Of a DNA stretch of 64,000 nucleotides, positions 11,201-49,400 are shown in pieces. Numbering within the stretch: position 1 is the stretch's first letter; the number at the start of each line of letters is the position of its first letter. Source of the stretch: Sphaerodactylus townsendi (taxonomy: Eukaryota); assembly GCF_021028975.2 (NCBI RefSeq), contig NC_059429.1, positions 100,750,001 through 100,814,000 on the forward strand, written 5' to 3'. The notes beneath the pieces are model-generated. The model searched no databases. It had not been told where the DNA came from and saw only the letters and a list, made by a program, of their open reading frames with translations. Both the position numbers and the translations under genes were made by a program.

Positions 11201-14200
11201 GCTCTGTATGGTAGCATGAGAGAAGTGCTTCTGGAATATTCCAAGGGTGCATCTATTCCAGCATCATCCTTACAGAAGCGGATGCATCTGAGAAGCCTGG
11301 AGGAATGAGTGGACACAGTACGCTCCTCTCGTTGCTATTCTAGAAATTGGCATTCATAGATTCCACTAGTGATGGATTGTGTATTAAAAGCATGTAACCC
11401 AGAAGGCGCCAAACACTTTAGGTATGTGTGTAAAAAACAAACAAAACCTCTATCTTCAATATTTGTTGTCCTGAACTGATTGCCAAACAATTTAATTGAG
11501 TTATAGTATTATATGAGAGTGATATTCTTCTGTTAAGTTTCCCTTACAGCCCAATCCAGAGCCACTGATGGTGGGATATAGTGCCACTGCAGTGCTGCCC
11601 TGCCATCTTTAAGAGAGCTTCTTGGTGGCGTGGGGAGGCAAAAAATTTTTTTTAAGCCTTTCTGCCACTGGGCTCTGTGGACTCAAAAGGGTGGCGTAAG
11701 TTCAAGCCCTGGGCACCATCATTCTGACAGGCAAAGGCTGGGTGGAAGATGACTAATGTTGACTTGCCCCTCCAGCCACACCTCTTGAATGCCCTTCTAT
11801 GCTGGTGGAGGGCCATGGCAGCTGAGGACTGTGGTAGCTGCCTGCTGATGGACTTGCCCCTCTGCTAGGCTGCGTGCCACGGGAAGGGCAAATCCAGTGT
11901 ACTTGCTCTAGCTTTCTCTTTCTGGTTGGTAGCACAATTAGGTTTATACTTCTTGCAAGATTTATTCCATAAATTACATTTCATCACCAGTGACGTCTGC
12001 CAAGACAGCAATTGAGTAAGAAGCCAGACAGAATAATATAATAAGCCCAGAAAGGTACATTGCTGAAATACCAATTAAGTTGGAGAATGAATTCAGTTAT
12101 TGGTATGTATTGTATGTTTGTGTAGAGTCTTTTATGTTTAAAAACAAAAAACTTAAAGCCATATTGGTAATGGAACATGAAATCACTCATTCATGCTGTG
12201 TTTGGGAAGTAACATTATGTATGAAGAAGAGTTGGATTTATATCCCCCCTTTCTCTCCTGTAAGGAGACTCAAAGGGGCTGACAATCTCCTTTCCATTCC
12301 CCTCCCCCCACAAACACCCTGTGAGGTAGGTGGGGCTGACAGAGCTCAGAAGAACTGTGACTAGCCCAAGGTCACCCAGCTGGCGTGTGTTCACAGGCTA
12401 ATATGAATTCCCCAGATAAGCCACAGCTCAAGAGGCAGAGTGGGGAATCAAACCCAGTTCCTGCCGATTAGAGTGCACCTGCTCTTAACCACTACGCCAC
12501 TGCTTCTCAAATGTTATATGAGTATAACATTTGAAGGAAAAGATTATTCGGCATCAATAAAATCTGTATCCTAATGCCAGCATCTTATTTGTGTGGCCAG
12601 CATGTTAAGAACTTGTGAGCTCTGTTGCACTTTCGACACATATTTGAAATAAAAAAAATTTATGGCAGGGCCAAGATGTTCAGTAAAAATTCCCCATTTC
12701 CTTATTTCTCTAGTTTATTCACTGAGTGTCCAGCATCTCCTGGAGCCAGCTTTGCCAGGAAAGGTAGGGGCTGGAAATCAATTTTTTAAAAAATAATAGA
12801 GTCTGAAATTTAAGGAGGTAACTGCAGAGGAACATCTTAAATTTTTGATGAGAAGTTAACTTATTTTTGACGAGCTGTCAATTTTGTATCCAGTCCATGC
12901 AGAATGTCTGTGTAAAGTCCCTTTCTAGTTAATGGGAAGTTTGTTCCACAGTGAAATAATTCTTTTAAAGCTGCTTGAAATGAATGGGTGTTGCACAAAA
13001 ATTCAACTTGCTCTTAAGATGTTGCAGAGGAATGCAACTCGCTCTCTTACTTCCTTGTGGGTTTATATAGGAGCAGTTCTCAGTGAATCATTTATAAGCA
13101 TGTTAGAAAAACGTGATATCTGTAGACATGTCTATGGATAAAATAAGATGGCCGGGGGAGGGGTGGTGGTGGCTGCTTTACATCCCTTAGTATTAACAGC
13201 CACATGTCTCTTGAGTTTATGTTACATTATTTATGTTATAATGGGCTATGTGATCAGTGCTCTTTCAGGTGTTCAGGATCTACTAATTTGTTGTGGTGTT
13301 GAGGTTCTTGGAAACCTTCAGGTGGGTTTAAGTTGGAGTTGGATAGCAGTTATCTTATTGGTTGGAGTTGATAGCAGTTATCTTATTGCTTTCAACCAGT
13401 TTCAGAAAATGTTGCTCACTTTAGTGTTACATTAGGATTGTGTTAGTCTTTTCAAAAGCTGGACTCTGAAAATGCCATCATGATTGATATGCAGGCATTG
13501 TGTACTACTAGAAGAAATCTATTTGTGGGGGGAGGGGACCCTGTCCAGATAACTTACTGTATTGAGGCTGTTCTGAGGCTATTAGTGGTTAGTGTCAGGG
13601 GTATGGCAGTGGTGTAAGATGCATTACAGTTTTACACTCAATTACTGGTTATGCCAGTGTTGGCTGTTAAGCAACTGTGACTACTTGTGCAATAATGTGG
13701 AAGACAGTTCTTTTAACCCTTAACAGTGTGTGCATGACTATATCCCTGTAAGAACTGTGCACCTCTGCTTAGGATTGTGCTTTTTCCTACTTAAGTCAGT
13801 ACAGTGGCAGGTACCACCTTGACTCTGGCTTTTTTGGGGGGAGACAGAGAGGTTTAAATGACTTGTTCTTGAAATCAGCAAGGGAGATACTTCTCTGATG
13901 TAATTGATGAATCTCTCTGCAGTTTATAATGTGGTAGAACATTACGTTTTGAAGGGTGTGTGGAGACAACCTTGCAGTGCATTAACTTTTATCTACTGAC
14001 ATGTCCCAAGAGGGTGGGACAGCATGTTTCAGATCCCTGGAAGCTAGCCCATAATGTTTCTCATCAGTCTGGTTTCTCTTTGCTTAAATGCCTCTCAAGT
14101 GTGATAAACTTTTCCAGAGTTTCAGGTAAGAAACAACATTAGTTTGTTGACACACAGCTCTACTTTTCATTCCTTATTCATTCAAGATTAACAGATTCTG

Positions 14201-17200
14201 GAATAGTATGGTGGCCGTGGTAACATTTGGGATTTCCCCTCTTGCCTTTCTTGAAGTATTGGGTCTGTAACCTTGGATATCTGGTGCCCAGTTGTACTTA
14301 TGGCTGCTTAGGGGGAAAGTATTCCTTCCATCCTATCATTGCTATTTAATTATTTTTCTTGGTGAATGGTATCTTGTCAATTGTAACCTCAGTAGTTAGC
14401 TTCTGGAATGGAGTGTGGAGATGCCCTTGAAAATGCTGGCCATTTCAGTTAGTGCAGTTAGTGCACTCTTTAAAAGGGTCAGAAGATAAGAATCCAAGCA
14501 GCTGTTTTAAAAACAGTAGTCTGTTAGCTTCCTGTTCCAATTCAGGATGGTAGTATTACCTTCCAAAGCTCTTAACAGCTTGGTTGTCACCTGCCTGATT
14601 GAGCATCACATGATCCTACTAGTTCTTTGAAGTCCTTTCTATATATGGCTTCAGGTGCTCTTGAATCATAGGTTGTACAATTTTGAATCAGTCACCATTT
14701 GTAGCTTGATATAGTCCAATCCTCCAGGTATTTATAAAGATTGCAAAACTGTATGTCATCTGTCTCTTGATTGCTAGATGCCTGCTGATATTTCAAACAG
14801 TAGTGCTGGATTTTATCAAAGAAAGTAGGGGTGTATGTGGTTATTAGAGCAAGAAACACTCAGGCTCATGTTGTTCCTCTTTCTCTCACATGTTGCACAA
14901 AAGTGTAAGACTTTTTTATTTAGGAAGTCTTCAAACTAACTGCCATTGGGTGTGATATTAACTGGGTAGAATCATAGAGTTGGAAGAGACCCCAAGGGCC
15001 ATCATCCAACTCCCTGCAATGCAGGAACACATAATCAGAGCACTCCTGACAGATGTTATGATTTTGTTTGTTGCATAGAAATTAGCATTTTGAAGGATTA
15101 AACTTTGGTTTAGAATCCCAGTTTTAAAAAACTTAACACCCCAATCCGGGGCTCTACCTATGAAGGGGGTGCAGGATTGCACCAGCAGATTTTGCCCTCC
15201 CTGGGCGTAGCGGGGGCATTTTGGAGGTTTGGCTGGGGGAGGGGGATGGAGCTGAGATTAGTCAACTTCTACCTGGCCTTGCCTGCTGGAATGCTGGTGC
15301 CAGGGGCTTGGGCTTAAGGGTGGTGTACGCCCATAGAGTCCAATGGAAGACCCTGTGGCTGCAGGTTGGCTTTTTCTATTTCTTGCCTCCCTGCACCGTT
15401 AAGAAACCCTCGTGGAGGCAGTGGGGTGTGCTGTGTCCTGCAACCAGGGGGTCTGGATTGAGCTGTCAATCTGTTAGGGTGCTAAATTCAGGCATTACAA
15501 ATTGCAGTTAGAATGAGAACTTGCTGATTTAGGAAGTCTTCAGTTTTTGGACAGCACATGAGGAGGGAAGTGCAGGCATTGAAAGATTTCTGGCTGATTG
15601 CCAGTGCTAACTAATTGTGGTTTGTGATGCTTGAATGCAGCCCAAATAATTTTGCTATAATGTATACTTTTTGTGAACTGTTTAGGTGCTGTCGTTGGCC
15701 ATATGTTTTTTCCCCAAGCCCTCATAACATATCCGAGTCAGTAGTTTGTTATGATGTTGATGATGCATGTCTAATCAATGTAGTAAGCCATTGCACATGA
15801 ATATCTGTGGTGCTGCTGCCATGAGAATTGGGTCTCTTGTGGCTGTTACTCTGCATGATATTGATGTAAAGAAAAACAGAATGTAACAATAACATTCCTG
15901 TATCACTGTTGCTTTGCCAAGGGAGAATAATTAGTAGAAGTAGTATAGGTGTCTCTATTAACTGTTGTGAAATCAGTTGTTTTAAATTAGTGTGGGTTTT
16001 TGGGGGGACTGTACATACAGGATTAGTCTTCTCATATTTATTGTTGCTATGTAGCTTCTTGATATGACAGTTGCAGAGTGTGGCAGTTTTTGTTGCTGAA
16101 AACATGTTTTTAAACTATACTTGGCTTGGAATGAACTGACTGTAAAACAAGTTGCCAAAACTTTTTCTTCTTCTGTTGGAGATACTGGTGACCCAGAACA
16201 TTTATTCAGAGCATACTTACATAGAAGCCATTGGCTTAATTAGTTGCTGCTGAAAGTTAAATTTTCCCTTGTTCATTTGCATACAATTGTGAGGACTAGT
16301 TCTGAAGCTTTGGCTGCACTTTTTTTTTTGTGTGTATGGGGGAAAGGTTAATATGGACTCAAGAGACCGTGTTTGTGTGGTGAACAGTCTTGGTTGAGCA
16401 CTTGGATAGGATTCAGTTGCAGCAGGGGTGTCCAAGTCTGGTGCTTCAGATGGACTACAATTCCCATCAGCCCCTGCTGGTATGGCCAATTGGCCATGCC
16501 AGCATGGGGCTGATGGGAATTATAGTCCATGAACATCTGAAGCGCCAGAGTTGGACACCCCAGATCTACAGGATCCAAGGTAATCGAAGTAAGTTCTCTT
16601 CTCCCCCCACTTCTACATCCCATTGGGTATTTCTATTTTGTTTCAAGGCACCATATTCATATACAAATGGCAATTTTACCCCAGATTAAAAAGTTCACTT
16701 GCTGCTTTTGTCCTTTTGTCCTTTTGTCATATATTTCATCTGCTTTTGGATCTACTGCTGTCTTATTTCCTTGCCTCTGTTTTCCAGTGTTCCCGATGTT
16801 CCATTTTTTCCATTAGAATAATTGATAAAGTCATCAGTATTTTTCATGCAGTACATTCAGACTGAGTGAGATGCTTTTTAAGACAAGGTTATGTCAGGAC
16901 CGAGTTTCATTTCCTGTAATCCCCTGTAAGTCTCATTTCTCTGAATCCCCTGGTTCCCGCCACAGCTAAGAATCGCCCACCAACACACCCTTTATATACT
17001 GGGACTGAGGGCAAGAACCCTCAGTTCCAGCACCCTGTAGTTAGGGCGACACAAATCAATAAAGTTCATTCCTTTTTTATAAAGTCGACTTTGGCTCATT
17101 CCGCACATGCAGAATAATGCAAGTTCAAACTGCTTTCAGTGCTCTTTGAAGCTGTGCGGAATGGCAAAATCCACTTGCAAACAGTTGTGAAAGTGGTTTG

Positions 17201-20200
17201 AAAACGCATTATTTTGCTTGTGCAGAAGAGGCCTTTGTTTGAGTGTGTTCAGCCTTACAGGTTATTCCTCAGTGAGGAATGAAGATATTTCTCAGGTTTT
17301 TTTTCAGTACTTCCCCAAATTTCCCAATTTTTTCATTTGACAAGTTGAAAAGTCTGAGGACTTTTTCATGGTATGATTTTTGAGTATGAAAAATAAACTT
17401 TCCAGTTTTTTCATTAGAAAAATGGAGGAAAGTCCGTCAGTGAAAAAATAGAGCCCTGTTTTCTCAGTGTGTTTTCCCCTGCAGGCTACTTCCATTTAAC
17501 TTTATATACTAATTTGTATTTTCAAAAAGACAAATACCAGCACAACTATTATGAGAAAGCCTGGATATTTTGAGAGGGAATGTATTGTCCAGCTCTGGTT
17601 GAAACAAATCATTTAGTATTAGCCAAACATTAAAATATAAATATAGCATTTAAAGTTCTTAATGCTAAGCTCTTCACAGATAATTTACAAACTCCTTTTC
17701 TGTGTTTACAAATACATTCTGCCCTCTGACTTTGGAGTGTGTAAGGCCATGCCTCTCTGGTTCAGCTTTCAGCTCTTATTAGTTCTGGGTGATGACACTC
17801 CTAAGAGATAAAATATTCTAAAAGTTGGAAGTTATTGTTAGTTTAGTGGAGCATGCCAAAGGCATTTGTAAAAGCTGCTCTGAACCTGGACATCTATTTG
17901 CTTTAAGAAGGTCATCCCTGACATAATAGATAGAAGTCCTGGTTTGAAGAAATTAAGATTTCTTTTTTCATTCCATAAGCAGACAAAGCCACAACATTTC
18001 AAATTTGAGTTTTCAAGAACAGTCTCTTGTGTTTTTCTTTGTGCATGTGTATATTCTAGAATGCCATGATGTTAATAATGCAAATACAGATGTCCTATGT
18101 ATTTTTTTGTTTGGGACGAATATATCTATATGACAGCAGGAACACTCATGTGTACACCTTGTGAGCATTATTTTGGCGAGAAGTACCATTCCATTGGTGG
18201 AAGCAAAGCTCCTTCCTCTTTGAGTGGGCTACTGAGGGCAACATATTAGAGCAACATATTAGACCTGTTGCATTAGTGCCAACTGTGTTTCTTGGTGTAG
18301 GTAAGCTGGACTCTCTGTGAAGTGTCAGGTGGAATCCATTTCTTATTAACTCTCTTACTACTCTATCCTAACGTGAGACAAATTACTCTCTTACTCTATC
18401 CTAACGTGAGACAAATAGATTGCTTTGGAGTATGAGGGACTGGGCAAGGCATTTGCTGCCATTTTGTTGCGTGACATGAATTAAACATGAATCTTAGTGC
18501 TTCAGCTGGAATATTGCCACTTAACTGATGATTGAGAATTTTCAAGATTTCACCGTGTGATTTCTAGCAGTCCTGTTAGCAAAGGACAATTGAATTATGC
18601 TTGCTTATCGTTAAGTGTCAGGGTAAGACATGTTGTATCTTGTTCATTTATTGTGTCACGGTCTGCAGCAGCTTGTTATAAATACTTCCATGAAAGATTC
18701 TTGGCTTGTGATAACTTGTGAATTCTTGCAGAAGGTTCAGTTACCTTGGATGGATCAGTTAATATGGCTACCATAATGAAAATGTCAGTTTTAGCTATAG
18801 CTCAAAAAACTTTTCCCCCATTTGCTGTTTAGGTTTCCTTTAAGAACATAAAAACAAAAAACATTTCCTTTAAGAACATAAATCTTTGCTGTTCTTACTG
18901 TATTTGTGTCTGTAGCATAAGGAAGGTTGAGAATCCTTCCTTTCATGTTCTTTACAGATTTTGTTTAAAACTTAGTGGAAATGATCTGCTGTCTCTGTTT
19001 TGAGTTCAGAGAACCGAAATGCCTTTTGAACAAAATGTTGAGGTGGCAGATGACTTCTAATTCATTAAAAACAACACCTTTTAAATGGGAAAAAAACCCT
19101 CCAAATGTCATAATGGGCAGTGGGTTTTTTTTTCATGCCACTGCCAAAATTAGAATTCAGTTTATATGTATTTTCCTGTAGACTGAGGTGGGTAACTGTG
19201 TAGTTTTATTTACTTAGAAATGAAAATCTACCAACTCTTTGGAATTACTGCCATTACATTGTTATACTAGCATCTTTAATCTTCCTTTTAAGATATGACA
19301 TGGTTGCTAATGCAGGTTTTATGTTTGCTTTGTTTTGTGCCTCTCAGGAATAATCTTAAATTGGTATACTGTAGGTGAGAAGGAAAAAAGTGCTTTGAAG
19401 CTTTTAAATGAACTAATTGTAGCATAAGTATGCTTAGCGAACACTTCAGTGTCCTTTTAAAGCTAGCAGAAGTGAACCTGTAGTCTTGATACAAGTTTTC
19501 TGAAAGGAAAGTTTAAATTTTCTCAGTTGTGTTGCTGTTAGTTCTTCTCAACCCAGGCAATGCATTGGAATTTAGTTCTCTTATTTTTAGTGGCTTTCTC
19601 TGTCCCATCTTATGCGTTCTTCTTCCCCATCTAATTTATGTCTTGCAAGAGCAACAATGTCATTCTTTATGACAGGTAGACATACAGTGTTTTAGGAGGA
19701 AGCATGCTAAGCATTCATTGATATATCATATAGCTGTTCAGCCCATAGCCTGCTCCTTCCATACTGACATCTTGTTGCATTCAAGTGCCATTTTCAGCCC
19801 TGGTCTACTGGAGCTGGGGCTTTCCTGGCTTCTTCAGTTCTCCCTATTTTATTTTCCCCTTACTATTCTAGAAACCTTATTGTGAATGGACCACCACCAG
19901 ATGACAGCATTTGAAAGTGTGGTTTGTCACGTTCAATGTTTGGTCTTCGACCCCTGGTGCTGCAAGTGATCTACCTTGATGGTGTCCCCAGCACTGATAC
20001 TCTGAAGGTTGAACATGGATTAATAGTTACTGAACATGGTTAATAGCTGCTGATGGACCTATTTTTCATAAATCTTTCTAATCTCCTTTTAAAGCTAACT
20101 AAATTAGTGAATAGAACTTAATCTTGTACCAGTGAATTCTGCAGGTTAATCACTCTTTGAGGAAATACTGTCCATCATGAAATTACTGCTTGTCCACTTC

Positions 20201-26200: not shown

Positions 26201-29200
26201 ATTTATTAATTAATTAAATGTATAATTAATATTGATTAATTAATTATATTTTTATCTTGCCTTCCTGGCTAAAGCAAGGTTCAGAGTGGCTAACAGTGTG
26301 AAAACCATAAATAACCTATATCTAATTAAAATATTAAATTATTAATAAAGTTACATCACCTGATCATGGGTTCCAGATGTATGATTTCTGATTTATACCC
26401 AGCATGAGGAGCCACAGAACATTCACTTTCCTTTTTGGGTCTTACTCATTCTGTTAAAATAGAAGGACTTGGAACAGCACTGTTGGTTGGTAGAATGATG
26501 TTTCAGTCCTAGGTAGGCACTAAGACCCAAATGGAGCATTCTAAAACAAAGACGGTCCAGCATGTGGTGAATGGGTTTAACAATTTTGGAGTTTTTGTTT
26601 CTTTTGGTGAGACAAAGTATAGTTGATTAGTCTGAGAAACACCATCTCTCTTTTTTTTCCACAGGTGTGAAGAAAGGAGATAGAGTTTCTATCTACATGC
26701 CAATGATTATTGAACTGGTGATAGCTATGCTGGCTTGTGCCAGAATTGGAGCACTTCATTCCATTGTGGTAGGAATTTTTGGTGTCAGTTCTGCCATGAA
26801 CTGCCTATTGAAATGGACTGCAGCCGCAGTAGATAACTAGTGGAATAAAGCTGGTTACTTAATTTGATGTTTCTGATTTGTTTGTTTTTTGGTTTGGAAT
26901 CTTCCTTTTGACTGAGCCGATGCTAGTGTAACCATTTTATGTTTTCAGGGAGAACCTCAGCGGGCTGGGTAGTCTTTTTGGGGAATTTGTGCTCTCACTT
27001 CTTGGTGATGCTTTAGGCTTCCTCTCTAGTTTCAGTGATCTTTACTATAGAGACTAGGGGGAATTCCTACAACCATTTTTTTCCAGTTCCTTAGGGGTGG
27101 GAAATTTGGGCTTGAAATTTCTACCCTGGGCAGGTAAATTGTGGCAGTCAATCTTTCTGGGAACCTTGTATTTCATCACTAAAATTTGGATTGAGAAACG
27201 GCTGAAAAAATTCCAAGAGGCTTTAAGATTCCCCACAGCACAAATGTGAAAATTACTAGTTAGTCTGGAGTGCTAGTACTGAGAGTGTTCCTGTTTGCAA
27301 CTGTAATTAAAAATGGTTTCATTTCAGTGACTGAATTGAGTGATTGTGTTGTCTTGTCAGTTCGCAGGTTTTTCATCAGAATCTCTTTGTGAGAGGATTC
27401 TTGATTCTCACTGTTCTCTTCTCATTACTGCAGGTAAAAAGCCTCCTCTAAATCTAGTTATCAAAATACTTCAAGCTTTAGGATTAACAGTTAATGAGGA
27501 AAAAGACATTCAAGCAACTGGATTTTTTTTTAGGGGAAGAGGGAGAAGGGGATGATGGGTAGCATGTTTAAGCCTTGCTTTGCATCCAGGTTGGCTCTGA
27601 AAGCAGACTTCATTAACCCAACAGCCCTTTACCATGTAGTAGTACATAACAATATACAATTCAGACAATGCAACTTGTGGAACTCTAATGAAGAAACAAA
27701 GTCTTGCTTCTAGGTAGAAGTGAACCCTCACCAGTACTAGAAAAATTATATTCTTCAGAGATCCATGCGTTCAAGAAGAGGAAATGGATAATTAAAGGAT
27801 GGAACCTTTGCCCTCATTCCAAACCTGAAGCGCTGAGTTGCACTTCTCTCCCCAAACCTCCTGCTGACCTAGCTTCTCTACTGTTAAAGTACTATTCCTT
27901 GGAAGCTCTTGGTAGTTATTGATGATGTTGTATTAAAACAGTATCCTACTTTTTTATTCGGTGACTCCCTCAGATGTTTATTGCCAACATGTATTTGAAA
28001 TTGATTGTTTATTAGCCTTGCTTTTAACGCTGCTTTGGGGATGGTGATGTTAGACATTCCACTTCGGCTGCCATACTGAAATAATAATAATAAAAAGCCC
28101 CGCGGCATTTTTGTGATGTCTAGTAACTTGGCAGTTGCAACTGTGCCTTTTAGTTTCCTAAGAAAGTATTTTTTAAGAGCTTACATATTAGACCTTTGGC
28201 AGTTGCCCCATATTTTTATGTCCCAGTGATGACTCTGTTAAAGAACCAATTCATGGCAAAGGGCTGTTTGGGCCATGCAGATTTCTGGTTGCTCCCTAAA
28301 GAATATTCCAAGTATTGTTCACTTGAGCCCCTTCCATGGATGAAGTTTTACTGATTTCCTCAGAGGCATCTATTGATTGTCTTTATTTGCAAACTTTCCT
28401 TTAAGTTAATTTAATTGTTTATACTCTTTTTTCTTTTCTTTAAGTCCATATGGTTCCTTTTCTTTTAACTACCTTCAAGTTCTTGCAGGCTGCTCTGGAA
28501 AGCCAGTTTAATGATTTACTTTCCATTTTGTAGATGCCTTTTATAGAGGTGATAAGCTAATTAACCTGAAGCAGATAGCAGATGAAGCCTTGCAGAAATG
28601 TAAAGACAAGTAAGTCCATTGGAATGAAGTGGTTCCTGTTGGAAGCTTCTGCTTTTGTGTAGATGTAAATGTTGGCAGTTACGATCTTTAAAATGCCATA
28701 GCTCAGTGGTATGGATGGATATTTGGGAAAAAATTACAGAAATTCTATTAACCTTTTGCTCTTGTGAGAGGCTCTTTTGAAAGCACCTATAACTGCTTTA
28801 GGCAGTCGTTTTCATTTGATCAGTTAGCTGCTTATAAATCAGGAGGAGACGGTGTTCTAGCATAAAATACTGTTAATGGTTAATTGGAACAGAGAAGTAA
28901 ACATGCTCCCATATCAGTAAAAACTATATAGAGATAAAATGTGACTTAACATGGCTCAATTCAGACATCATCACAAACTAGGAGTGCCTGATGGCTGCCC
29001 AGCAATCCTGGGAACTTTGAGGGCAAGGCAAGAGGCAGATGCAGCATTGGGCTGTTTGCTGACATCACTGCTAGGTTTTTGCCTGGACATGATGTCAACA
29101 TATAGATGAATGTTATTTCTACCTCCCACTGTTTCTCCTGCAAGACTAGGAGGCAAGATTGGGGGTGGGGCTTAAACCTGAAGCAGGCATTGGCAAGCCT

Positions 29201-32200
29201 ACCTCAAACCATGGTTAAGGAAGCTTAACTTAGGCTGTTTCCGCACAGCCCAATACACTGTCCCTAGGGCGCTGTTTACACAGCTGTTATTGCTGCATTG
29301 CAGCAGTGCTGTGCTCGTGCCGCCCAAGTGGTGTGAAGACGCCGCTTTTGAACCTCGCTCAGGGAGCGAGGGTTTTCAAAAGCAGCGTCTTCCTGCCAGG
29401 GCGGTGCGACCCCCCAGGGGTCGGAGGGCAGTGTGGGCGTGTCTTTCCAGCCATGCAGAGCTGCGTAGGAAGGAAAGGTAAGTGCCTCGCAAACACCCTG
29501 GGCAGCTCTGTGCAGAGCCGCCCCTGCAGGCATCAGCAGCACTGGGACTGCCCGCACGGGACTGTGTGAGCAGTTTGTCAATGGATGCAACGTGCACAAT
29601 CACTGCAGAAATAAACGCGCTGCATCAACCGCTTATTATTATCAATATTCCAACAAACATTAAAGTGCAAAAACCAACTGTGCAATGATGACATACAACT
29701 CAATACGATATACCACATAAATCACAATAGCAGCTCTTTGGTGTCGTCTTCAACAGTTCTCTTAATTTCTCAGTCCATATACATACTAGGACGAAATCTC
29801 TCTCATGAAGACTATCAACCAATTTCAACGTGCTGCGTTCCCTGTATTCCGTCAACCTGACTTGTTGTACATCTGGTGAATAAGCGGACTGGTCTTGGCC
29901 AAGTCCGATCGACCCAATGTATACACAATTAACGGATCGCGCTATTGTAACCGTTTTCGATTCGATCTTCTTCAGATTATGATTTAAATTCGACAGTCTT
30001 GGTTGGGATAATCCAGGGGTAGGGAACCTGCGGCTCTCCAGATGTTCAGGAACTACAATTCCCATCAGCCCCTACCAGCATGGCCAATTGGCCATGCTGA
30101 CAGAGGCTGATGGGAATTGTAGTTCCTGAACATCTGGAGAGCCGCAGGTTCCCTACCCCTGGGATAATCCTTCAAGGTGATATAATCTGAAGAAGATCGA
30201 ATCGAAAACAGTTACAATAGCGCGATCCGTTAATTGTGTATACATTGGTCGATTGGACTTGGCCAAGACCAGTCCGCTTATCCACCAGACATACAACAAG
30301 TCAGGTTGAACGCAGCACGTTGAAATTGGTTGATAGTCTTCATGAGAGAGATTTCGTCCTAGTATGTATATGGACTGAGAAATTAAGAGAACTGTTGAAG
30401 ACGACACCAAAGAGCTGCTATTGTGATTTATGTGGTATATTGTATTGAGTTGTATGTCATCATTGCACAGTTGGTTTTTGCACTTTAATTCACTGTTTGC
30501 ACTTTAATGTTTGTTGGAATATTGATAATAATAAGCGATTGATGCAGCGCGTTTGTTTCTGCAGTGACTGTGTGAGCAGTCCCGATGCTCCACGACTTTA
30601 TTTAAGCAGGTGGGAGTCTGCTGCTCTGGCCATGCGGAAACGGCCTTAGTGTAATTTACAAACCAAATTTTGTGATTGGCTAGCAAACCAGAATTGGAAA
30701 CCATAGCATGGAGGGCTCTTTTTCGTGAGTTATAGTTTTAACCAAATATGGTTTACTGTCATGGCCTACTTGAAGAACCAAAGTTACAGCTGCTATGTGG
30801 AGGTCGCTGAACCTAGAGATAGGCATGCTGAACAGATGGAAAGTAGGAACAGACTTGTAAACTTAGGATGCCTGACTGTTCAGAAGAGTGAACTCCATGA
30901 TGTAGATTTTAAAAAATGATTAATGATGTAAGCCATGACTTTGTGTGATTTTGAAATGACCTACTGATGCCTGAGATAAATTTGCTGTAATGCAACTGGT
31001 AAACTGCCTCCACCCCCAACAACTTTGCTACCCAGACCTTTTTTATCATGTTGATTAACATACTTTTTTATACCATAAACACTCATTTCTTCACTCTAGA
31101 GAAAGATTTCCCAATGATTGCAGTAGAAGGGGAGCTACAGGCAGATCAGTGGACCATTTTGCCCAATACTTGGCAGGTGCCCCCAACCTTATATTCTGTT
31201 TTACACTGGTCTATGATTTTGGAAGAATCTGAATTCATACTGACAGAACTTAATTTCCACTTCCTGATTTGAGATCCCCCCCCCCCCTTGGATAAAAATG
31301 GCAAGCGGCTTATACATGTAGTCAGCTTGCAGAGTGGCTACAAAGGTCCCTGATGTCTTGAAATCCTGTATTTACCTTTAGGGAGGGTGTAGCAAAAATG
31401 TTTTCATAATTTTGAAAGTGGATGTTGGTCTCTGCAGATTGGGGCATTCACTCAGGTTAGGACCTCCAATGTTTGCAGCGAGACTCTGATATCCCTGCTG
31501 CTTTGTAATTGCTCTTATTCAGCTATGTATAGCAACGCACCCTGCATTGTCTGCTGAGTAAAGCTGGAAGGGCATTTATCAGTTGATTTGTAGAACCACA
31601 TGTTTTTTGTAGTAGATTTCGTCTTGGCTTAACACTGTGGTTTCTCTTATAGACTGAAGTTTTCTTGAACCGGAATATCCTCCTTCATTCATGTTTTTCT
31701 ACCTATGATTCAAGCTAATGATTTCACTTTTCTTCCCCTTGTAGGGATGCTCCTCTGCAAAGGTGCATTGTGGTCAAGCATTTAGGGAGGGAAGAACTGT
31801 TATCAGATGGGCCCAGCAGCAAATCCCCACCTCTTAAGAGACTCTGTCAAAGTGTACAGGTGGGTGGCTTTGTTTAATTTGTCCTAAAGATCTGTTTGAG
31901 ATTTAAATACACACTGCTTTTGAGAGAGGCTCTAAGTCTTCTTACTGTGGGGATTTCAGGTATCGTTATGGAGAACTTGATTGTCAAGTCGCAATTTAGT
32001 GTTTTGAAATGCAACTCTGTCTCACATAGCATTTGTATTGCATCTGTGTGTGATATGATTGTGTAACTCTCTGAAGCACCTGTTCATTAGTACCTGTAAA
32101 GTTACTGGTGACAGGAGCTGTCCAATTAATTTTGCTTTTGATTATTTTTCTCTTTCTAGGGTGAGAAATGTCAAAAGAGTGCTCATAAAAAGAAAGCAAA

Positions 32201-40400: not shown

Positions 40401-43400
40401 TTAGATGGTTGTTGCATGGATTATAGCATGATCTTGTATGAGAAATACTTCAGAATTTTAAAAAGAGTTGTATGAATGCTGAATATTAGAAATGCCATTT
40501 ATGTCAATAATGGACTTGATGGCCCTTGTGGTCTCTTCCAATTTATGATTCTATGTAGTTGCAATCTCAGCTGATGAGTTTTTGCTCACTATAGCGCATG
40601 TTGGCAGAAATGCACGTTGAGTCTCACTTGCATATTTCAGAATCATTTGATTCTTATATATGGCCTCAGTGAATGCACAGTGGAGGGAAAATGAAGTGGT
40701 GTGGATGATGCTGGTTTCAGTGAGAGGAGCTGAGCTGCTTTACTGAAAAATTATTTAAAAATCTTTAAAATGATGCAAGTTCATCAGGTTGGAGGTTCAT
40801 ATTGTTGTAGTCACACTTGAGTACCAGTTACACACATATAACTTCTCAAAAACTTGATCATATATTCTCAAGAAGAGCTCAGATGGATATCCCTTTATGT
40901 ACACTAGAACCACTAATGTAGTTTTAGAGCAATTGTTAAAGCATGGCACTGCTGCTTGGAATTTTAACTTTTAGTGTCTGCCATGGATTCATTATTTTGA
41001 CCTTGGGGAAGTTTGTGTCTCAGCTTCAGTTCCCCATCTGTATACAGAAGTGATAGAATCCTGCCTCCTTTGATGGAGAGCAAAGGCAAGGATTTTAAGG
41101 AATTGGATAATTTAAGTGTTCATAAATGATAAACAGTTGTAAACACAGCAAAAAATGTGCTTTCTCCTGAGGGTAGTTCCTCGCAAGTGTGGCTCAGGAA
41201 GGAGAACATTCTAAAGCGGCCCGAGTTACATCTAGAGGGTGGAAAAACTATGTTCAAGAATAAGAATAGTTGCTTAAAGACAACACTACTTGGGCTAGGA
41301 CAAAGAGTGTAACATTTTTGCAGCCCATAAAGGGGGAAGTTACTCTTGTAAATAAAAACGGGAACTGTAAAGCAGCACTCTGATTCAAAAGGCAAAACAA
41401 GTTTCAGATTCTTTCAGAGTACCTTCACTTGAGGTGTAAGAATTTCACTGTGATTCTCTCCCCCCCTCCCCAGTGAATTATCTTGTCTCTAAATATCATG
41501 ACTCTTACTATATGATTTTCTTCAGACTCCTTGGAATTCAGAAGTTGATGTTTGGTGGCACGAAGTTATGAAAAATGCTAGCAAGGAGTGTGAGCCTGTT
41601 TGGTGTGATGCAGAAGATGAATTGTTTATTCTCTACACTTCTGGATCAACAGGGAAACCAAAGGTAAAGTGCTTTATTCCGGGCAATTGCCAAAGTGGGC
41701 TGGTGGAGATTTGCAAGCATGTTTATTCAAATATTTATTGCCCTCTTCTTATCAGAAAGAGGACTCAGCATGGCTTTATCACACCACTTCTGACCTGTTC
41801 GCTATGTGTCCTCTTGCCATTTGAGGTTTTGCTGGGCTGGGGTGTCAGTGGAACCAGAAGCTTATGTTTACAAATGCTTCACTATAATGCGATGTGTGGT
41901 GAGGGTTGTATATTAGGTGAAATATAGCCCACAGACTTGTTCTGGAATGATTGTGTGCAGGCCGTATTCATTACACTGAACAGTTCTTAAGCTTTTGCTG
42001 CATGCTATATAGACAAGTCAGTTTATTGATATCTTGTGAAAATGGCTGAAGTGACCTAATCAATTTAATAGGGAATTGTCATCATGAAACAAAACGAAAT
42101 CATGCCGTACCTCCTTCTTAATAATTCAACTCTGACATGGTGAAGTTGAGAAAGAAGTATTTAAAGACGTGACCACTGAAAAACTTTGGTATAAAGCAGC
42201 TCTTGGTATAAAACATTATTTCAACATCCACATTTCTGCAGAGCTCCAGCATCATGAGTATTTAAAAGTGTGGTGTAGTGGTTAAGAGCAGGTGGATTCT
42301 AATCTGGATAATCTGGAGAGCCAGGTTGGATTCCCCTCTCCTCCACCTGAGTGGCAGAGGCTCAACTGGTGAACCAGATGTGTTTCTGCACTCCTACATT
42401 CCTGCTGAGTGACCTTGGGCTAATCACAGTTTTTCAGAACTCTCTCAACCCCACCTACCTCTCAAGGTGTCTGTTGGGGGAGAGGAAGGGAAAGGAGTTT
42501 GTCTCTACAGGACAGAAAGGGGGGTATAAATCCAAACTCCTACTCCTCCTCTTCTTCTAAAAGGGCCAGTTCACCTGAGTAGAAGGTGTATATGAGTACA
42601 TAATTATAAAACAGGAGATAGCCCTATGAAGAAGAATACTTGTGTAAAATTTGGGGATCTTTCATCAATCTCTAAGTGAAACAGTATTGAAATTCTCTCT
42701 ATTGGTATGCTTGTTTGTGGTTTCGAAATGAATCAGCTCAGAAGCTGTTGTACAGAAGACTCCAAGCACATGTCTTGTGGTATCCAATCAGTAATAGTCA
42801 CCAGTGTAGGTTTTCAGTGCTCTCCTTTCTAGTTAGCATTATTGAATTGTGTTGTATTAAGCTGTCAGCAAGGGTACCAAGAGTGCTATTGGCTTGACTT
42901 CCCAGCAAGCTGTTATCTGGGGTTTCATCTATCACCTCAACATCATGTTCAGTAACTTTAAACTGAAAGGAGAATCATTTGTAATGTTACTATTATTTAA
43001 TAACTATAAATATGTTACATGACCTTTGGAAAGGACCCCTGCCTCCTCACCTTTGTTATGAGACTGCAAGTGAACTTGGAATAATTAGAAGTTTGGATTT
43101 ATACCTAACTTTTCTCAGCCATGAGGAGTCTCAAAGCAGGTTACAGACTCCTCCTCTTTCTCTCCTCAAACAAGCATCTTGTGAGGTAGGTGGGGCTGAG
43201 AGAGTTCTGAGAGATCTGTCACTAACCCAAGGTCACCCAGCAGGCTTCATGTGGAGGAGCAGGGAAACACATCCATTTCACCAGCTTAGAATCTGCTCCT
43301 CATGTGGAGAAGTGGAAAATCAACCCTGGTTTTCCAGATTAAAACCCACCACTCTCAACCACCTCACCAGAAAAGTGTTACAGTGGTGGAGTTTTCCTAT

Positions 43401-46400
43401 AAAAACAATTTTTTCCCTGTACAAAACTGATCACATAAACTCACCTTTAGTGAGCCGTCATGTTAAAAGTAAACATTTTGTGCTTCAGAATACTATTTTG
43501 AAGTATTATTCTTGTAATAGGCAAAGCAGTCTGTGTTCTTTCTTAACAATTTTAATGAATATCTTGTGTTCCTTGTTTCAGGGAGTTGTACATACTATAG
43601 GTGGATATATGATTTTTACGGCTGCTACATTTAAATACGTATTTGATCACCATCCTGACGATATTTACTGGTGTACAGCTGACATTGGATGGATAACTGG
43701 TCATTCCTACCTCACGTATGGGCCTTTGGCAAATGGGGCAACCAGTGTCTTAGTAAGTTCTATGGTATAAGTTATAGATGTAAGGGAAAAGTGTGTCTGG
43801 GAATGCTGAATTCCTTGACAGAAGTTGAATTTGTATGTCATCTCAGGTGCTGATGTGTTTATATCAGTGTCTATAAACATTGTCATCAACGACTTCAGGT
43901 CAAGAAAACAATTTAGCAGTGTGGATATATAAAGTTCAGTGTGGTGCCAAAGCCATATCTTGGAACAGAGATTCATGCTGTCCAGAGCCAAGGAGATGGG
44001 TTCCATGTTGTGTGATAGCCTTAAAACTGAGTGCCATAATATTTCTCTTTTTCATTCTGCCATTCTTCTGGGAGAATTCGCCAGAGCAGATAAGCCAGCT
44101 TGTGCCAGATAGTGAGACTGGTTGCAGTTAACATTTGTGCTGGTCACTATTGTTTGGGCTACAGGACTGCATTTTGCACCACATGCTGGAAGAAGCAACA
44201 GTTGAAGTGGTTCTTGCTAACAGTTGTGTCTCCTGCTCAGTTTGAAGGGCTTCCCATTTACCCAGATGTTGGCCGTATGTGGAGCATCATTGACAAGTAC
44301 AAGGTGACCAAGTTCTACACAGCACCCACTGCCATCCGCCTCCTTATGAAGTATGGAGATGAACCTGTTAGGAAGTAAGCATGACTTCAGGAGAACAGGA
44401 CAGTGCATGTGTCCTGTATGAACATTTGAAGCTGCCTTATACCTAATCAGACTATTTTCCTATCTAGCTGAATATTGTCTAATCTGACTGGAGCAGGTAT
44501 CATAGGCTGTTGGATGGAAAAAGCTCTTCAACAACACCTACTGCCTGGGGTCCTCTAACTGGAGACGCCTGGGACTCAGCCTGGGACCTTCTGTGTGCAA
44601 AACCAGATGCTGTGTTACGGGGTTTTTCAACAGATAGCCCCTGAGCTAACCTGCAGAATAGCTCGTGCATGCCTTAGATCAGGGGTAGGGAACCTGCGGC
44701 TCTCCAGATGTTCAGGAACTACAATTCCCATCAGCCCCTACCAGCATGGCCAATTGGCCATGCTGACAGAGGCTGATGGGAATTGTAGTTCCTGAACATC
44801 TGGAGAGCCTCAGGTTCCCTACCCCTGCCTTAGATAGAAGATCCAGGAAAAGATTGCTCTGCTTATCTGATAGCTTCTTTTTGTTGCTTTCCCTAGTTTA
44901 TATTCTGTTTCTATGACAGAATGAAACTTGAAAGTTTGCCAGGGGAGGGTTGGGGGAGGAAGTACCTCAGGATATTTGTCACTGCTTAGCAGTAGCTCTC
45001 ATTAAAGAAAAGGTTGGTGACCTCTGTTCTATCACTTAACCCCAGATTATCCAGCATGCATTTAGAATTGGACCAAAGCAAACTGCCTCAGCCTTTATCC
45101 ACAGGCACTTAAGTTTTGGGAGAATACTTATTTTTAACCTTTTCATTTGTGTTTTGTAACAAACTGATGAAGTGGGGGAGGATAATATTTGACTGGAACT
45201 TAGTTTGAGTTCTACTATTGCAGGTGCTAGAAGATACCTGCCCAAATCTTCTCCAGATAACGGTTCTTGCAGTTAGTATCTCTTGGCATGCCTCTCTAAA
45301 TAACCTTTTCTGGATTTCTAGAACTGACATTCAAATCTAGTATCTAGTGAGTGTCCTCTGTGCTGCAATCTTCCTGGAATGTTCTTAGAACCTTCATGTA
45401 GAACCTCCCCCCCCGCCCTCCTTTTATTTTTAAACACGTGTGCTTCTTGTGGCAGGTACAGCAGGAAGTCTCTGAAAGTGTTAGGAACAGTTGGGGAACC
45501 CATAAACCCAGAAGCTTGGCTGTGGTACTACAAGGTTGTGGGAGAAGAGAGATGCCCTATAGTGGATACCTTCTGGCAGACAGAGACGGTGAGTTCTTAC
45601 GCTTGCTTGTTGATGTGAATAGTGGGATCCTCCTTGCTCTTTCCAAGCATTGAGATTTCATCGCCAAATATGCTGGAGTCTGCCTGTAGTATAAGAACTG
45701 TTGCTTGGAAATGCGCGGCTCAAAACATATCTCCCATCTCTTTGGTCTGACTTTTGCCAGTATGCTGGTAGGGGCACTGTGTACCGGCATCTGCTTTCCT
45801 GTTTTTCTGAGCCAAGCTCTCCTGTATAATTACTCTTCTACTTCATGGCCTTCATTTAGATATGTGAATCAGCATGTTGAGAACTAACCTTCTGCCCTAT
45901 TCAGACTGTAAAAACATTTAGGTGGTTCTTTTCTAAAGAAATTGATGTTTTCATGACCATTTTTGGTTTTTTTCCTCCAGGGTGGCCATGTGTTGACTCC
46001 TCTCCCTGCCGCCACACCAATGAAACCAGGATCTGCAGTGAGTATGGCTCTAGCTTGTTCTTTTTTGTTTGTGGCCATGCTTTTTCCTCTAGTGGTGACT
46101 TTGAAATTGTTTCTGGGCAGGGGGCACCACACCTGCATAGTGCTACTCTTAAGAACATACAGAAATACCCAGTGTGGGGTGACTGTATGTTGATAAGCTT
46201 TCCTCCCTGTTTGAATGCTGACCAGCAGCATTTACTGTTATCTTAACGTTACATACCCTTCTGTGGTGAATTCTTTAATATGGGCATATACACAAAGTTC
46301 AATATCTTACTCAGTTCTGGGCTAACTTCCTTTCCCAAGTCCAGCTTCTGTCTTCTTTTTTCTGGGATAAAGTGTGTACTTTTCCAATTCTTTAAAATTT

Positions 46401-49400
46401 TGCTGCGAATTTTCTTTGGCAGACATTCCCTTTCTTTGGGGTGGTTCCTGCTGTGCTGGATGAAGCTGGGGAAGAGCTGGAAGGAGAAGCAGAAGGCTAC
46501 CTGGTAAGAAGTTCTTATTGTTGCTAGCTGAACCCCATCATTGTTGAAAGTGTGTTATGAGCCACGGAGTATGATTCCCATTTTGCCAAAGCCTGTCCCA
46601 TAACACAATTCTTGTGATCTGTAGTGGCTTTTATCTGCCTGGTAGGGTGATCATGCTTTTCAGGAGGGGCTGCAGTTCAGCACTCTCAGGGTACTGAACT
46701 GGTCTCAGATTAGATCAGAGTTGCCTTGTTGGAGGAGAGAAGATTTGCAATATTGCATAAAGGGGCATGCAAGTAGTTTTCCAAAAGGAGGAAAGCATTG
46801 TCGAACATGTTGGCAGAATGGGCTGTGGCCCAGAGCAGAGTTATAGTGACTGAAAGGCAATGGGTTTTTTTGTTGTTTGAACACTGCGTAGTTTCTGAGA
46901 CTAGTTGCTGCAGTGCTGTTTATGAAAGCTGAAACAATTCTTTCCGTGTTTTATGGGTCATGGTTCTGTTACAGGGGGTACAAGTGTAGCGATGTGCTTC
47001 CTTTCAAGTCCTGAGCATTGAAATGTTTGAAATACCATTGTGCTTGGAACTGTGCTGTGCATTGCCTGCACCATGGCCAGGGGGTCACATGCCTGTTCTT
47101 CCTCCAACAAGAAGCTCAGGACATAGTGTGTAACAGGCTGTGATACACCTCTGAAGATGCCAGCCACAGATGCAGGCGAAACGTTAGGAACAAGATCCAC
47201 CAGACCACGGCCACACAGTCCGGAAAACCCACAACAACCAGCAAGCTCAGGATTATTGTGTAAAGTGGGTTAGCCTGAGAAACCCACTTCACACAAGTGT
47301 GCTATATACTTCAGTGAGGATTTGAGCACACTCTTCTCATCCCAAATCCACTTCTTTGTCCACTAATCCATAAAGCCAGTGGTTAGCGAGGAGATCCAGA
47401 AGCAGATGTTGTACATAGCCATGCAGAAAAATAGTTCGGAAGTGTTCTCCAATTAGAAAGAGGAAAAAAATTGCATCTCTAGGTATACTCTACCCTTCTT
47501 CACCTTTTAATAAAGTCTTTTCTCTAACCTCTCCTTTAGGTTTTTAAGCAACCCTGGCCTGGAATAATGCGCACAGTGTACAAAAACCACCAGCGGTTTG
47601 AGACCACTTACTTCAAGAAGTTTCCTGGTTACTACGTGACTGGAGACGGTAAGGCTCCAACACAACATCTTGGAGTCAGGTGTATTGATGTCCTAATGAG
47701 CTTGCTCTCCCCTAACATAGAAGGGGGAACCTTTACATCCACAAGATGCCTTGGCTACTTCTGGGTCAGGGCAGCTTCCTTACAGTGTCCAATTTATTGG
47801 TCTTTTTTCAGGCTGCAAGAGAGATAAAGATGGTTATTACTGGATCACTGGTCGAATTGATGATATGCTGAATGTTTCAGGTAAGAGCAAAGTCCTCCAG
47901 TATTTGCAAAAAGTTGGACCTACTTGAAAAACATCTTTAAAACATGGCAAAGTTCATAATATCGTGAACCTTTGTTGGGTATGAAATATTTCCTCCCTGA
48001 GTAGTTTGTCCCCCCCCCCAAAAAAAACCCCACCCCCAAACAAACAAAATCCTGCATTCAGTCATTGTTGAGAAGTATAAACTGCAGCAGATGGATAAAG
48101 AGAGTTCAAGAGCAGCACTTGGCACACCAGTATGCTAAATGGGGGCATGATTCAGCTGATGTTGAGCCACTGTGGATGAGATGAGAACCAGCATTGGCTT
48201 TGAGCTGTAAAAACAATTAGGACTCTGAGAAGTAAACTCTGAAGTCACTGAAAATTGTATCAGTGCTTCTAGTAGTAGGGAAGAAGTGAAAAGGTAAAAG
48301 AACAGCTTCATACTTATCTGCCTAGATTATCCTGAATATAAAACAGATCTAGATTAGAAATACAGGTTTCATTTTGTACAGTGATTGATAAAATTCATAT
48401 AATGCATTTTGTTGCCTAATGGGGAAATTGCCTTGCATTAGAGATATCTTCTGCAGGATGAGCTTTGAGCAGTCAGCCAAACACTTAAGTGTCTGAATAC
48501 TTCCTTATGCATTCAGGGACATATGCAAATAATATCTGTATTAGAATTGCTATCCCAGTACCTAAAGTAAAGGGCATTCAGTTTCACAAAAGGCACTTGC
48601 ATCAGCTATTTCCCCCTGTCTTTTTTGAAATGTCTTTTTTGAAATGTCCATATTAAGCAAAAATTCCATCAAAATATTTTCTTTTTTTGGTTGTAGTATC
48701 TCCATGACCATTTAGGAATGCTGACATCAGCCAGTGTTACCAATATTATCATAATCTGGGACTCAACTGCTTCTCACATTGTGCATTATCTTTTAATATT
48801 TGTGAACCATTGTGGTGTGGTGGTTGGCTATGTCTCAGTGGTAGAGCATTCAGAAAGTCCCGGGTTCAACCCCCAGCATCTCCAATAAAAAGATACAAGT
48901 AGGAAGTGGTATGAAAGATATTCTGGAATTCAGATTAGACAACATTGACTTTGACCAATATTCTGGCTTGATATAAGGCCCTTGATGTGCTTGTGTGTTG
49001 TGTTGGGTTAGGACTGGGGAGGCTTGTGTTCAAAACCTTATTCAACCTGGAGGATTTCTGGGTGATGCTGGATTGTCCACTCTTTCTTGGCCTATCCTAT
49101 CAAGTTGTTAGGATAAAATGGAGGAGAGGGAACACTGTATGCCAGTCTGTTTCTTAGGGGGAAGCATGGGAGAAGAATGTCACATAAATGATATAGAAGA
49201 TGCCTTGTCACTCAGGTCAGCTTATTTCTTCCTGCTTGCAGGACACTTGTTGAGCACTGCGGAAGTAGAATCAGCTCTGGTGGAACACTCGGCCGTTGCC
49301 GAGGCAGCTGTGGTGAGCCATCCGCATCCAGTGAAGGGAGAGTGCCTCTACTGCTTTGTGACTCTAAGGGACGGTCACGAGTTCACAAAGAATTTGATGG

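Follow-up and report, generated by a model that had tools for sequence, protein, structure and literature searches.

Inverted pseudo-long terminal repeats (pLTRs) and short 3′ extensions are traits of Penelope-like elements (PLEs) (PMC8969392). A Penelope copy described in PMC3846280 combines an inverted pLTR with a 31-bp tail and a 9-bp target-site duplication (TSD), head-to-head being the most frequent inverted arrangement, and the general PLE scheme of PMC8557442 has a 30–40-bp tail at one end and an inverted, 5′-truncated copy. The pLTRs carry hammerhead ribozyme motifs with an unpaired base before helix II, dual hammerheads lie on opposite strands 100–700 bp apart, and a large helix III occurs in PLEs of fungi and protists (PMC4209133). 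For the Poseidon elements of anole, the tail lies between two reverse transcriptase (RT) start sites, and no RNA reads that end at the hammerhead cut were found (PMC11167929); retrozymes are organized as tandem units (PMC7229834; bioRxiv 10.64898/2026.07.22.740005). We analysed an inverted-repeat insert in intron 6 of the ACSS2 gene of Sphaerodactylus townsendi and compared it with these systems, using a segment of 64,000 nt that contains the complete gene on the plus strand (contig NC_059429.1, positions 100,750,001 to 100,814,000; hereafter, the window).

The original prediction, made from the letters of the window, had described this region as a three-layer nested foldback, in which a Harbinger element with a TTA TSD contains two ~380-bp inverted arms within a 15-bp direct repeat, and a 148-bp palindromic hAT miniature inverted-repeat transposable element (MITE) later landed in a spacer of ~45 bp. 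We located all three layers, with the Harbinger-type element spanning 29233–30645. What had gone unrecognised are the hammerheads, the one-sided tail and the fit to Penelope, for which inverted arms are routine. The middle layer is likely a 5′-truncated insertion made by Penelope-like machinery, consisting of two head-to-head, hammerhead-bearing 3′ repeats within a TSD, and the insert likely works like a PLE insertion and belongs among the PLEs. The foldback is thus likely a known kind of structure, a PLE-type truncated insertion with an atypical hammerhead, sandwiched between two DNA-transposon layers.

The two copies of the 15-bp repeat, at 29560–29574 and 30566–30580, are its sole matches in the window at ≤2 mismatches (0.09 expected). 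Two Harbinger-type copies in sequencing run X5 align as far as 29571 and 29574 and then diverge from the window, indicating that the 15-mer is host sequence, belonging to the resident Harbinger-type element, that was duplicated by the middle insertion and now encloses the whole unit. Within this TSD, the left arm (29602–29980), a CpG-rich candidate pLTR, is sense on the minus strand, and the right arm (30182–30565), an inverted, 5′-truncated copy, is sense on the plus strand, that is, the ACSS2 strand. Both 3′ ends therefore face outward, in the head-to-head arrangement of PLEs. The arm length of the original prediction held up (~385 bp), but only the right arm abuts the TSD directly; on the left, a 27-nt extension (29575–29601, minus strand), absent from the right arm, runs further out as a candidate PLE tail. 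The proximal 7 nt of this extension match the TSD at 6 of 7 positions, and the right arm ends at this element/target microhomology. The observed/expected CpG ratio is 1.2 in the left arm and 1.0 in the right, compared to 0.23 for the window, and the arm is the most CpG-rich 431-nt stretch among 636 scanned in the window.

Both arms carry, at their inner ends, a type I hammerhead motif that reads outward from the axis. The left motif (29924–29981, minus strand; C3 at 29975) is intact, with helices I, II and III of 6, 3 and 4 bp and a predicted cut 3′ of 29930; it is made up of the 6-bp helix I, CUGAAGA, one unpaired A, a helix II of 2–3 bp opened by a G-C pair, GAAA and the 4-bp helix III, whose loop has 15 nt, with UA as the cut-site dinucleotide. 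In the right motif (30180–30239, plus strand, ACSS2-sense; C3 at 30187), helix III is weakened by a G>A change at 30210 that shifts the energy of the hammerhead fold from −1.9 to +2.6 kcal/mol. The two cores are 212 bp apart, which corresponds to 56 bp before the MITE inserted. Loop III of the left motif (29933–29947) holds a 10-nt stretch self-complementary at 8 of 10 positions, which, by analogy with other PLE hammerheads, could allow a dimeric fold.

A purpose-made type I descriptor, written after the motif had been seen, has a single match on both strands of the 64 kb, in the left arm, and was matched by none of 20000 arm shuffles with helices of 6/3/4 bp and by 3 of 20000 at 4/2/3 bp. A second, independent pattern, the core of the published PLE consensus (CUGANGAH G..C GAAA), has three matches in the window, with 0.06 expected, two of which are the arms; 59 of 50000 arm shuffles match it. 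The arm motif contains the complete metazoan PLE core (CUGANGAH, G10.1-C11.1, GAAA, UH), including the G10.1-C11.1 pair and the unpaired base 5′ of helix II, so that at the level of the motif the repeat carries a type I hammerhead as PLE terminal repeats do.

The third match to the core pattern belongs to a second PLE stump at ~47134–47242 (plus strand) in an ACSS2 intron, which is Poseidon-like and unrelated to the arms, and shows that this genome hosts PLEs. Its core lies at 47151, with a long helix II, a palindromic AACGTT and no helix III; helix II opens with an ATG, a feature shared with anole Poseidon, the end is AC-rich, and degenerate direct repeats of ~25 nt occur on both sides.

The combination of an inverted pLTR, a one-sided tail, a TSD and a hammerhead is a PLE signature, suggesting that a single retrotransposition likely produced the foldback. 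With endonuclease-bearing (EN+) PLE insertions (Adineta vaga Pen2a/Pen2, PMC3846280; PMC8557442; anole Poseidon, PMC11167929), the insert shares the head-to-head truncated copy, the one-sided extension, the TSD, the hammerhead in the repeat and the dispersed occurrence. With the hammerheads of PLEs (PMC4209133), it shares the type I topology, the CUGAAGAA core, the unpaired base before helix II, the G10.1-C11.1 pair, a near-palindromic loop III (8/10) and two motifs on opposite strands. Animal non-LTR (long terminal repeat) retrozymes (PMC7229834; bioRxiv 10.64898/2026.07.22.740005) are likewise non-coding units of a few hundred bp with a type I hammerhead and a link to PLE pLTRs, and are reported in reptiles, but here the copies are head-to-head instead of head-to-tail, and no tandem array was found at this locus. 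Closely spaced inverted Alu pairs (PMC3215922) similarly present two intronic arms of ~300–400 bp as a potential hairpin or instability substrate, whereas here both arms would stem from one insertion event and are ~98% alike, compared to 65–85% for most Alu pairs in that source.

Several observations weigh against assigning the insert to PLEs. Pfam, word-indexed and phmmer searches found no RT or GIY-YIG remnant in the insert, as is expected of a 5′-truncated end or a non-autonomous unit. In contrast to the cited EN+ insertions, there is no open reading frame (ORF) and no direct (tandem) pLTR; the extension of 27 nt (20 nt without the microhomology), a value for the ends of this copy only, falls slightly below the cited range of 30–40 nt, and the 15-bp TSD is longer than the 8–10 bp of the cited examples. 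The arms also lack the start codon at helix II that is present in anole Poseidon (PMC11167929). The hammerhead deviates further: minimal metazoan motifs have a long helix II and a helix III that is absent or of 1–3 bp, whereas the arm motif pairs a helix II of 2–3 bp, compared to ~6 bp in the metazoan PLE consensus, with helices I and III of 6 and 4 bp, the latter closed by a 15-nt loop, a combination shown by none of the 44 alignment rows compared from the supplement of PMC4209133. The published definition of a minimal hammerhead does not cover it, and it may be a new variant for animal PLEs. The ribozyme fold, at −1.9 kcal/mol, lies 6.6 kcal/mol above the minimum-energy structure of −8.5 kcal/mol (z-score −0.17), Rfam searches of the insert at E≤5 returned no hammerhead family, giving just below-threshold microRNA-type matches on the MITE hairpin, and a hairpin around the tail is no better than in shuffles (z −1.31).

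The features of the insert can be accommodated in a sequence of steps. A GIY-YIG endonuclease would have cut inside the resident Harbinger-type MITE with a 15-nt stagger, and reverse transcription would have copied ~0.4 kb of the 3′ end of the element, corresponding to the left arm and the 27-nt tail, stopping slightly beyond the hammerhead. Synthesis would then have reversed, the inverted copy starting 5 nt upstream of the hammerhead core and joining the second target strand through a few bases of microhomology; the source may have been an autonomous PLE or a non-coding derivative of one. Other Harbinger copies reveal the target as it was before insertion, which gives single-base resolution of the TSD, tail, microhomology and turn-around point, so that an exotic-looking foldback becomes a readable record of Penelope-type integration.

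Independent sequence data bear on the integrity and the age of the insert. The arm is present in five sequencing runs, four of which were aligned to 28660–30012, a stretch that covers the left junction and the left arm; the right junction and the MITE lie outside it, and no contig spans the insert. Runs X1, X2 and X4 are three samples of organism A from one study; X5 comes from a second study and may be the source of the assembly itself. Contigs of X1, X2 and X4 start at an SbfI site (29523–29525), cross the left TSD into the arm and reach 29971, 29991 and 29952, respectively, without any differing letter, so that the left junction, identical in all three organism-A runs, is not an assembly artefact. 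X5 contributes one left-arm contig without differences (29724–29869) and one contig that carries four right-arm substitutions and a 1-nt gap, that is, right-arm letters at five places. This right-arm contig, record 29 (29840–29939), retains the 13 nt deleted from the right arm of the window and continues beyond 29939, toward the axis, into 89 unlike letters; it may represent an allele that differs near the centre, or another copy. Over the arm, six X5 contigs have G at 29871, six have G at 29879 and four have A at 29878, with one T at 29870. Such shared alternative letters in 4–6 contigs indicate that the arms are a dispersed family, of which further partial contigs occur in X1 and X2, read depth being no measure of copy number. 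In contigs of other arm copies, in all four runs examined, change within the hammerhead is confined to loop II among the matches listed.

The arms have decayed independently since insertion. Over 365 aligned columns they differ by 8 substitutions (2.2%) and by indels of 19, 13 and 1 nt; all 8 substitutions are transitions, 5 fall at CpG and none is compensatory. At 29870–71, where the ancestral sequence was CG, the left arm now reads CA and the right arm TG, as expected if each arm mutated on its own after insertion. By layer, divergence amounts to 11–14 letters in 71–105 for Harbinger copies, 8/365 for the arms and 1/148 for the hAT-type MITE, a ranking that matches the nesting and supports the insertion order that had been proposed: Harbinger, foldback, hAT. 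Using a neutral rate for reptiles, we roughly estimate that the insert may be a few million years old at most.

Among alternative explanations, the one that survives best, though we consider it unlikely, is that a hammerhead RNA of other origin (viroid-like, a viral satellite or the 3′ end of another retroelement) was inserted in trans by target-primed reverse transcription of the long interspersed element (LINE) type, with fold-back during second-strand synthesis. In its favour, a 15-bp TSD fits the range for LINE-type insertion, the arm is the most CpG-rich stretch scanned in the window, and the motif forms a genuine helix III, in contrast to the majority of PLE motifs from animals. The insert ends, however, show neither poly(A) nor a 3′ microsatellite in their sequence, and LINE twin-priming inversions are not known to duplicate one and the same segment. 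Against a non-PLE RNA, moreover, the arm belongs to a dispersed multi-copy family and no viral relative turned up; its 103-codon open frame (29703–30011, minus strand), considered as a sign of a coding origin, is reached by 312 of 5000 shuffles and was rejected.

Searches for other relatives of the arm were similarly unproductive. Five of six arm-frame pieces gave nothing in Pfam and the sixth only one sub-threshold match, word-indexed protein searches at near or longer lengths found no homologue, and an Atlas search of the arm returned no usable match. Against 1.84 billion proteins, phmmer found a single match, P0121, a singleton hypothetical protein with four 52-residue repeats that aligns at 33–36% over 33–36 residues and whose score is summed over the repeats; we take it to be due to chance. 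The one viral candidate, L002 (the single stretch kept of 12), is seeded by eight identical residues at the terminus of an unrelated ORF of 467 residues and was discarded. The exact 23-nt hammerhead sequence had no matches in viral contigs and none in metagenomes, and a looser pattern had one metagenome match, inside a bacterial coding frame, also taken as chance.

The arms have predicted consequences for the ACSS2 transcript. The plus strand of the insert is predicted to fold, as RNA, into a 463-bp duplex of −820 kcal/mol with a longest unbroken helix of 167 bp (arm helices of 29, 42, 167, 18, 7, 35, 36 and 29 bp; MITE helix of 56 bp), in agreement with the largely continuous duplex that had been anticipated about 1 kb from the exons. 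As single-stranded DNA, the centre of the insert folds with z −34, a value that speaks to hairpin potential only. The right-arm hammerhead is sense in ACSS2 pre-mRNA, and the complementary left arm is transcribed first. Because of this order, and because the G>A change weakens helix III, cleavage of the pre-mRNA by the hammerhead is unlikely; the ~460-bp duplex would mask the sense hammerhead.

Of the functional roles that had been suggested for this duplex, that of an MDA5 substrate now appears unlikely, since RNA from introns stays in the nucleus and does not last long, and since the helix is interrupted every 7–167 bp; MDA5 has a length preference for RNA duplexes. Editing by ADAR is established for inverted Alus and, by analogy, plausible for this intronic duplex, which would probably attract it as a by-product without selected function. 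No A>G excess was seen in the aligned runs, none of which is on record as RNA, so that they provide no test of editing. The runs listed for the arm likewise include no RNA run, which does not bear on expression. Production of endogenous small interfering RNAs (siRNAs) from the insert would have a direct precedent in Penelope copies of Drosophila, where copies with long inverted repeats gave siRNAs that mapped to the inverted regions (PMC3681739). Searches of the open-licence literature listed no paper that treats this locus, or RNA editing of inverted PLE repeats in reptiles. The locus is ready-made for testing in vivo cleavage by PLE hammerheads, as well as editing or dicing of the inverted repeats that PLEs bring into vertebrate introns.

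A more far-reaching extension of the Penelope-type origin, which we regard as a long shot, is that the arms represent an undescribed CpG-rich PLE family or non-coding parasite, perhaps acquired horizontally, in which helix III lets the hammerhead cut as a monomer, the head-to-head antisense arm masks it, and the duplex feeds siRNAs. If so, a transcript in either direction would make the antisense arm first and mask the ribozyme, a built-in silencer that would explain how such inserts survive in introns, and a duplex expressed from a housekeeping gene would feed siRNAs against the arm family.

A duplex kept by selection as a regulator of ACSS2, through editing-dependent splicing or as a source of endogenous siRNAs, seems decidedly improbable. 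In its favour are the very stable predicted duplex ~1 kb from both exons, the Drosophila siRNA precedent and the presence of the left junction in all three samples examined. Against it, none of the eight substitutions is compensatory, all being transitions, mostly at CpG; the gene carries at least five other palindromic MITE hairpins; and the insert is young. The original prediction had called the retention of such a structure notable. The human genome contains fewer closely spaced inverted pairs than expected, and hairpin instability in yeast occurs at spacers up to about 100 bp (PMC3215922). Retention is less notable here and needs no selection, because PLE inserts are born inverted, no compensatory change has occurred, the spacer now measures 201 bp, and other palindromic MITEs persist in the gene while the arms decay neutrally. 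As far as host biology is concerned, the insert is probably neutral clutter.

Two further origins for the mirror-image arrangement are very unlikely. The first, implied by the original prediction, treats the insert as a foldback-type DNA transposon of class II, or as a large MITE, with the arms as terminal inverted repeats (TIRs). Two long, near-identical inverted arms around a short spacer, between direct repeats, would suit it. By definition, though, such elements have symmetric TIRs flush with the TSD, and here the ends are asymmetric, with 27 extra nt on the left and a right arm that enters the TSD via microhomology; a 15-bp TSD is long for cut-and-paste elements, and the hammerhead at the inner end of each arm would be left unexplained. 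The second, equally unlikely, is that a single arm inserted first and a replication template switch later produced the inverted duplicate. All three indels can be read as right-arm changes (a 19-nt insertion and deletions of 13 and 1 nt relative to the left arm), and an X5 contig that carries the right-arm letters departs from the window close to the axis, yet one TSD encloses both arms, the Harbinger sequence is seamless outside it, and both arms have lost CpGs from a common ancestral state. The 19-nt insertion (30490–30508) itself consists of 13 nt duplicated locally and 6 further nt, a pattern that replication slippage or repair within a repeat typically leaves. Finally, that the mirror image is an assembly artefact can be practically dismissed: mis-assembly is a known hazard of long inverted repeats and the aligned contigs cover only the left junction, with the right junction outside the aligned stretch, but, as the original prediction argued from arm-specific substitutions, the arms can be told apart, by 8 transitions and 3 indels, and left-arm letters with the left junction recur in all three organism-A runs, while one X5 contig has right-arm letters at five places.

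The outer layer, 407 bp long when empty, extends over 29233–29574 (the left part, including the left copy of the 15-bp TSD) and 30581–30645 (the right part with the right TIR), as defined by its TIR pair and by the boundaries of other copies. It is bounded by TTA on both sides (29230–29232 and 30646–30648) and has imperfect TIRs; as in PIF/Harbinger elements, a 3-bp TWA TSD is thus combined with short TIRs. We take it to be a Harbinger-type non-autonomous element under these TSD and TIR rules. It is multi-copy with a constant boundary: in the run contigs, copies elsewhere start at the base equivalent to 29233 with different flanks.

The innermost and youngest layer, the palindromic 148-bp MITE at 30014–30161, is presumably of hAT type, again by TSD and TIR rules (8-bp TSD). 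It split the original spacer between the arms, which measured 33 + 12 = 45 bp and has grown to 201 mostly palindromic bp, into a left part (29981–30013) that ends in the left 8-bp TSD (30006–30013) and a right part (30162–30181) made of the right TSD (30162–30169) and the last 12 bp of the original spacer. A single nucleotide separates the MITE from each of two further copies in ACSS2, and 8-bp TSDs flank all three near-identical copies, which are only 1–2 nt apart, indicating that the family was active very recently. This family is abundant, with the near-identical copies at 9820–9967 and 44680–44827 and older ones near 288, 3116, 16454, 36832 and 38931; a hairpin of up to ~70 bp is predicted for every copy that lies in an intron.

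The host gene was identified from a 44-residue exon piece that matches vertebrate cytoplasmic acetyl-CoA synthetases, full-length reptile proteins reaching up to 100%. Its coding exons, mapped by tblastn with three reptile ACSS2 proteins (P0010, P0034 and P0013), span 4960 to 52180. Exon 6, the sixth coding exon by protein alignment (28534–28609, plus strand, with AG/GT splice sites), and exon 7 (31746–31860, plus strand) bound intron 6 (28610–31745), placing the insert 950 bp from exon 6 and 1165 bp from exon 7. A weaker second match (56–62%) to the last ACSS2 exon, at 49728–49844, upstream of the main match at 52052–52180, is possibly a duplicated or alternative last exon. Further repeat families lie inverted within ACSS2 introns at 72–83% identity (9391–9549, 17087–17234, 50262–50402, and 12232–12500 versus 42270–42535 and 43143–43369).

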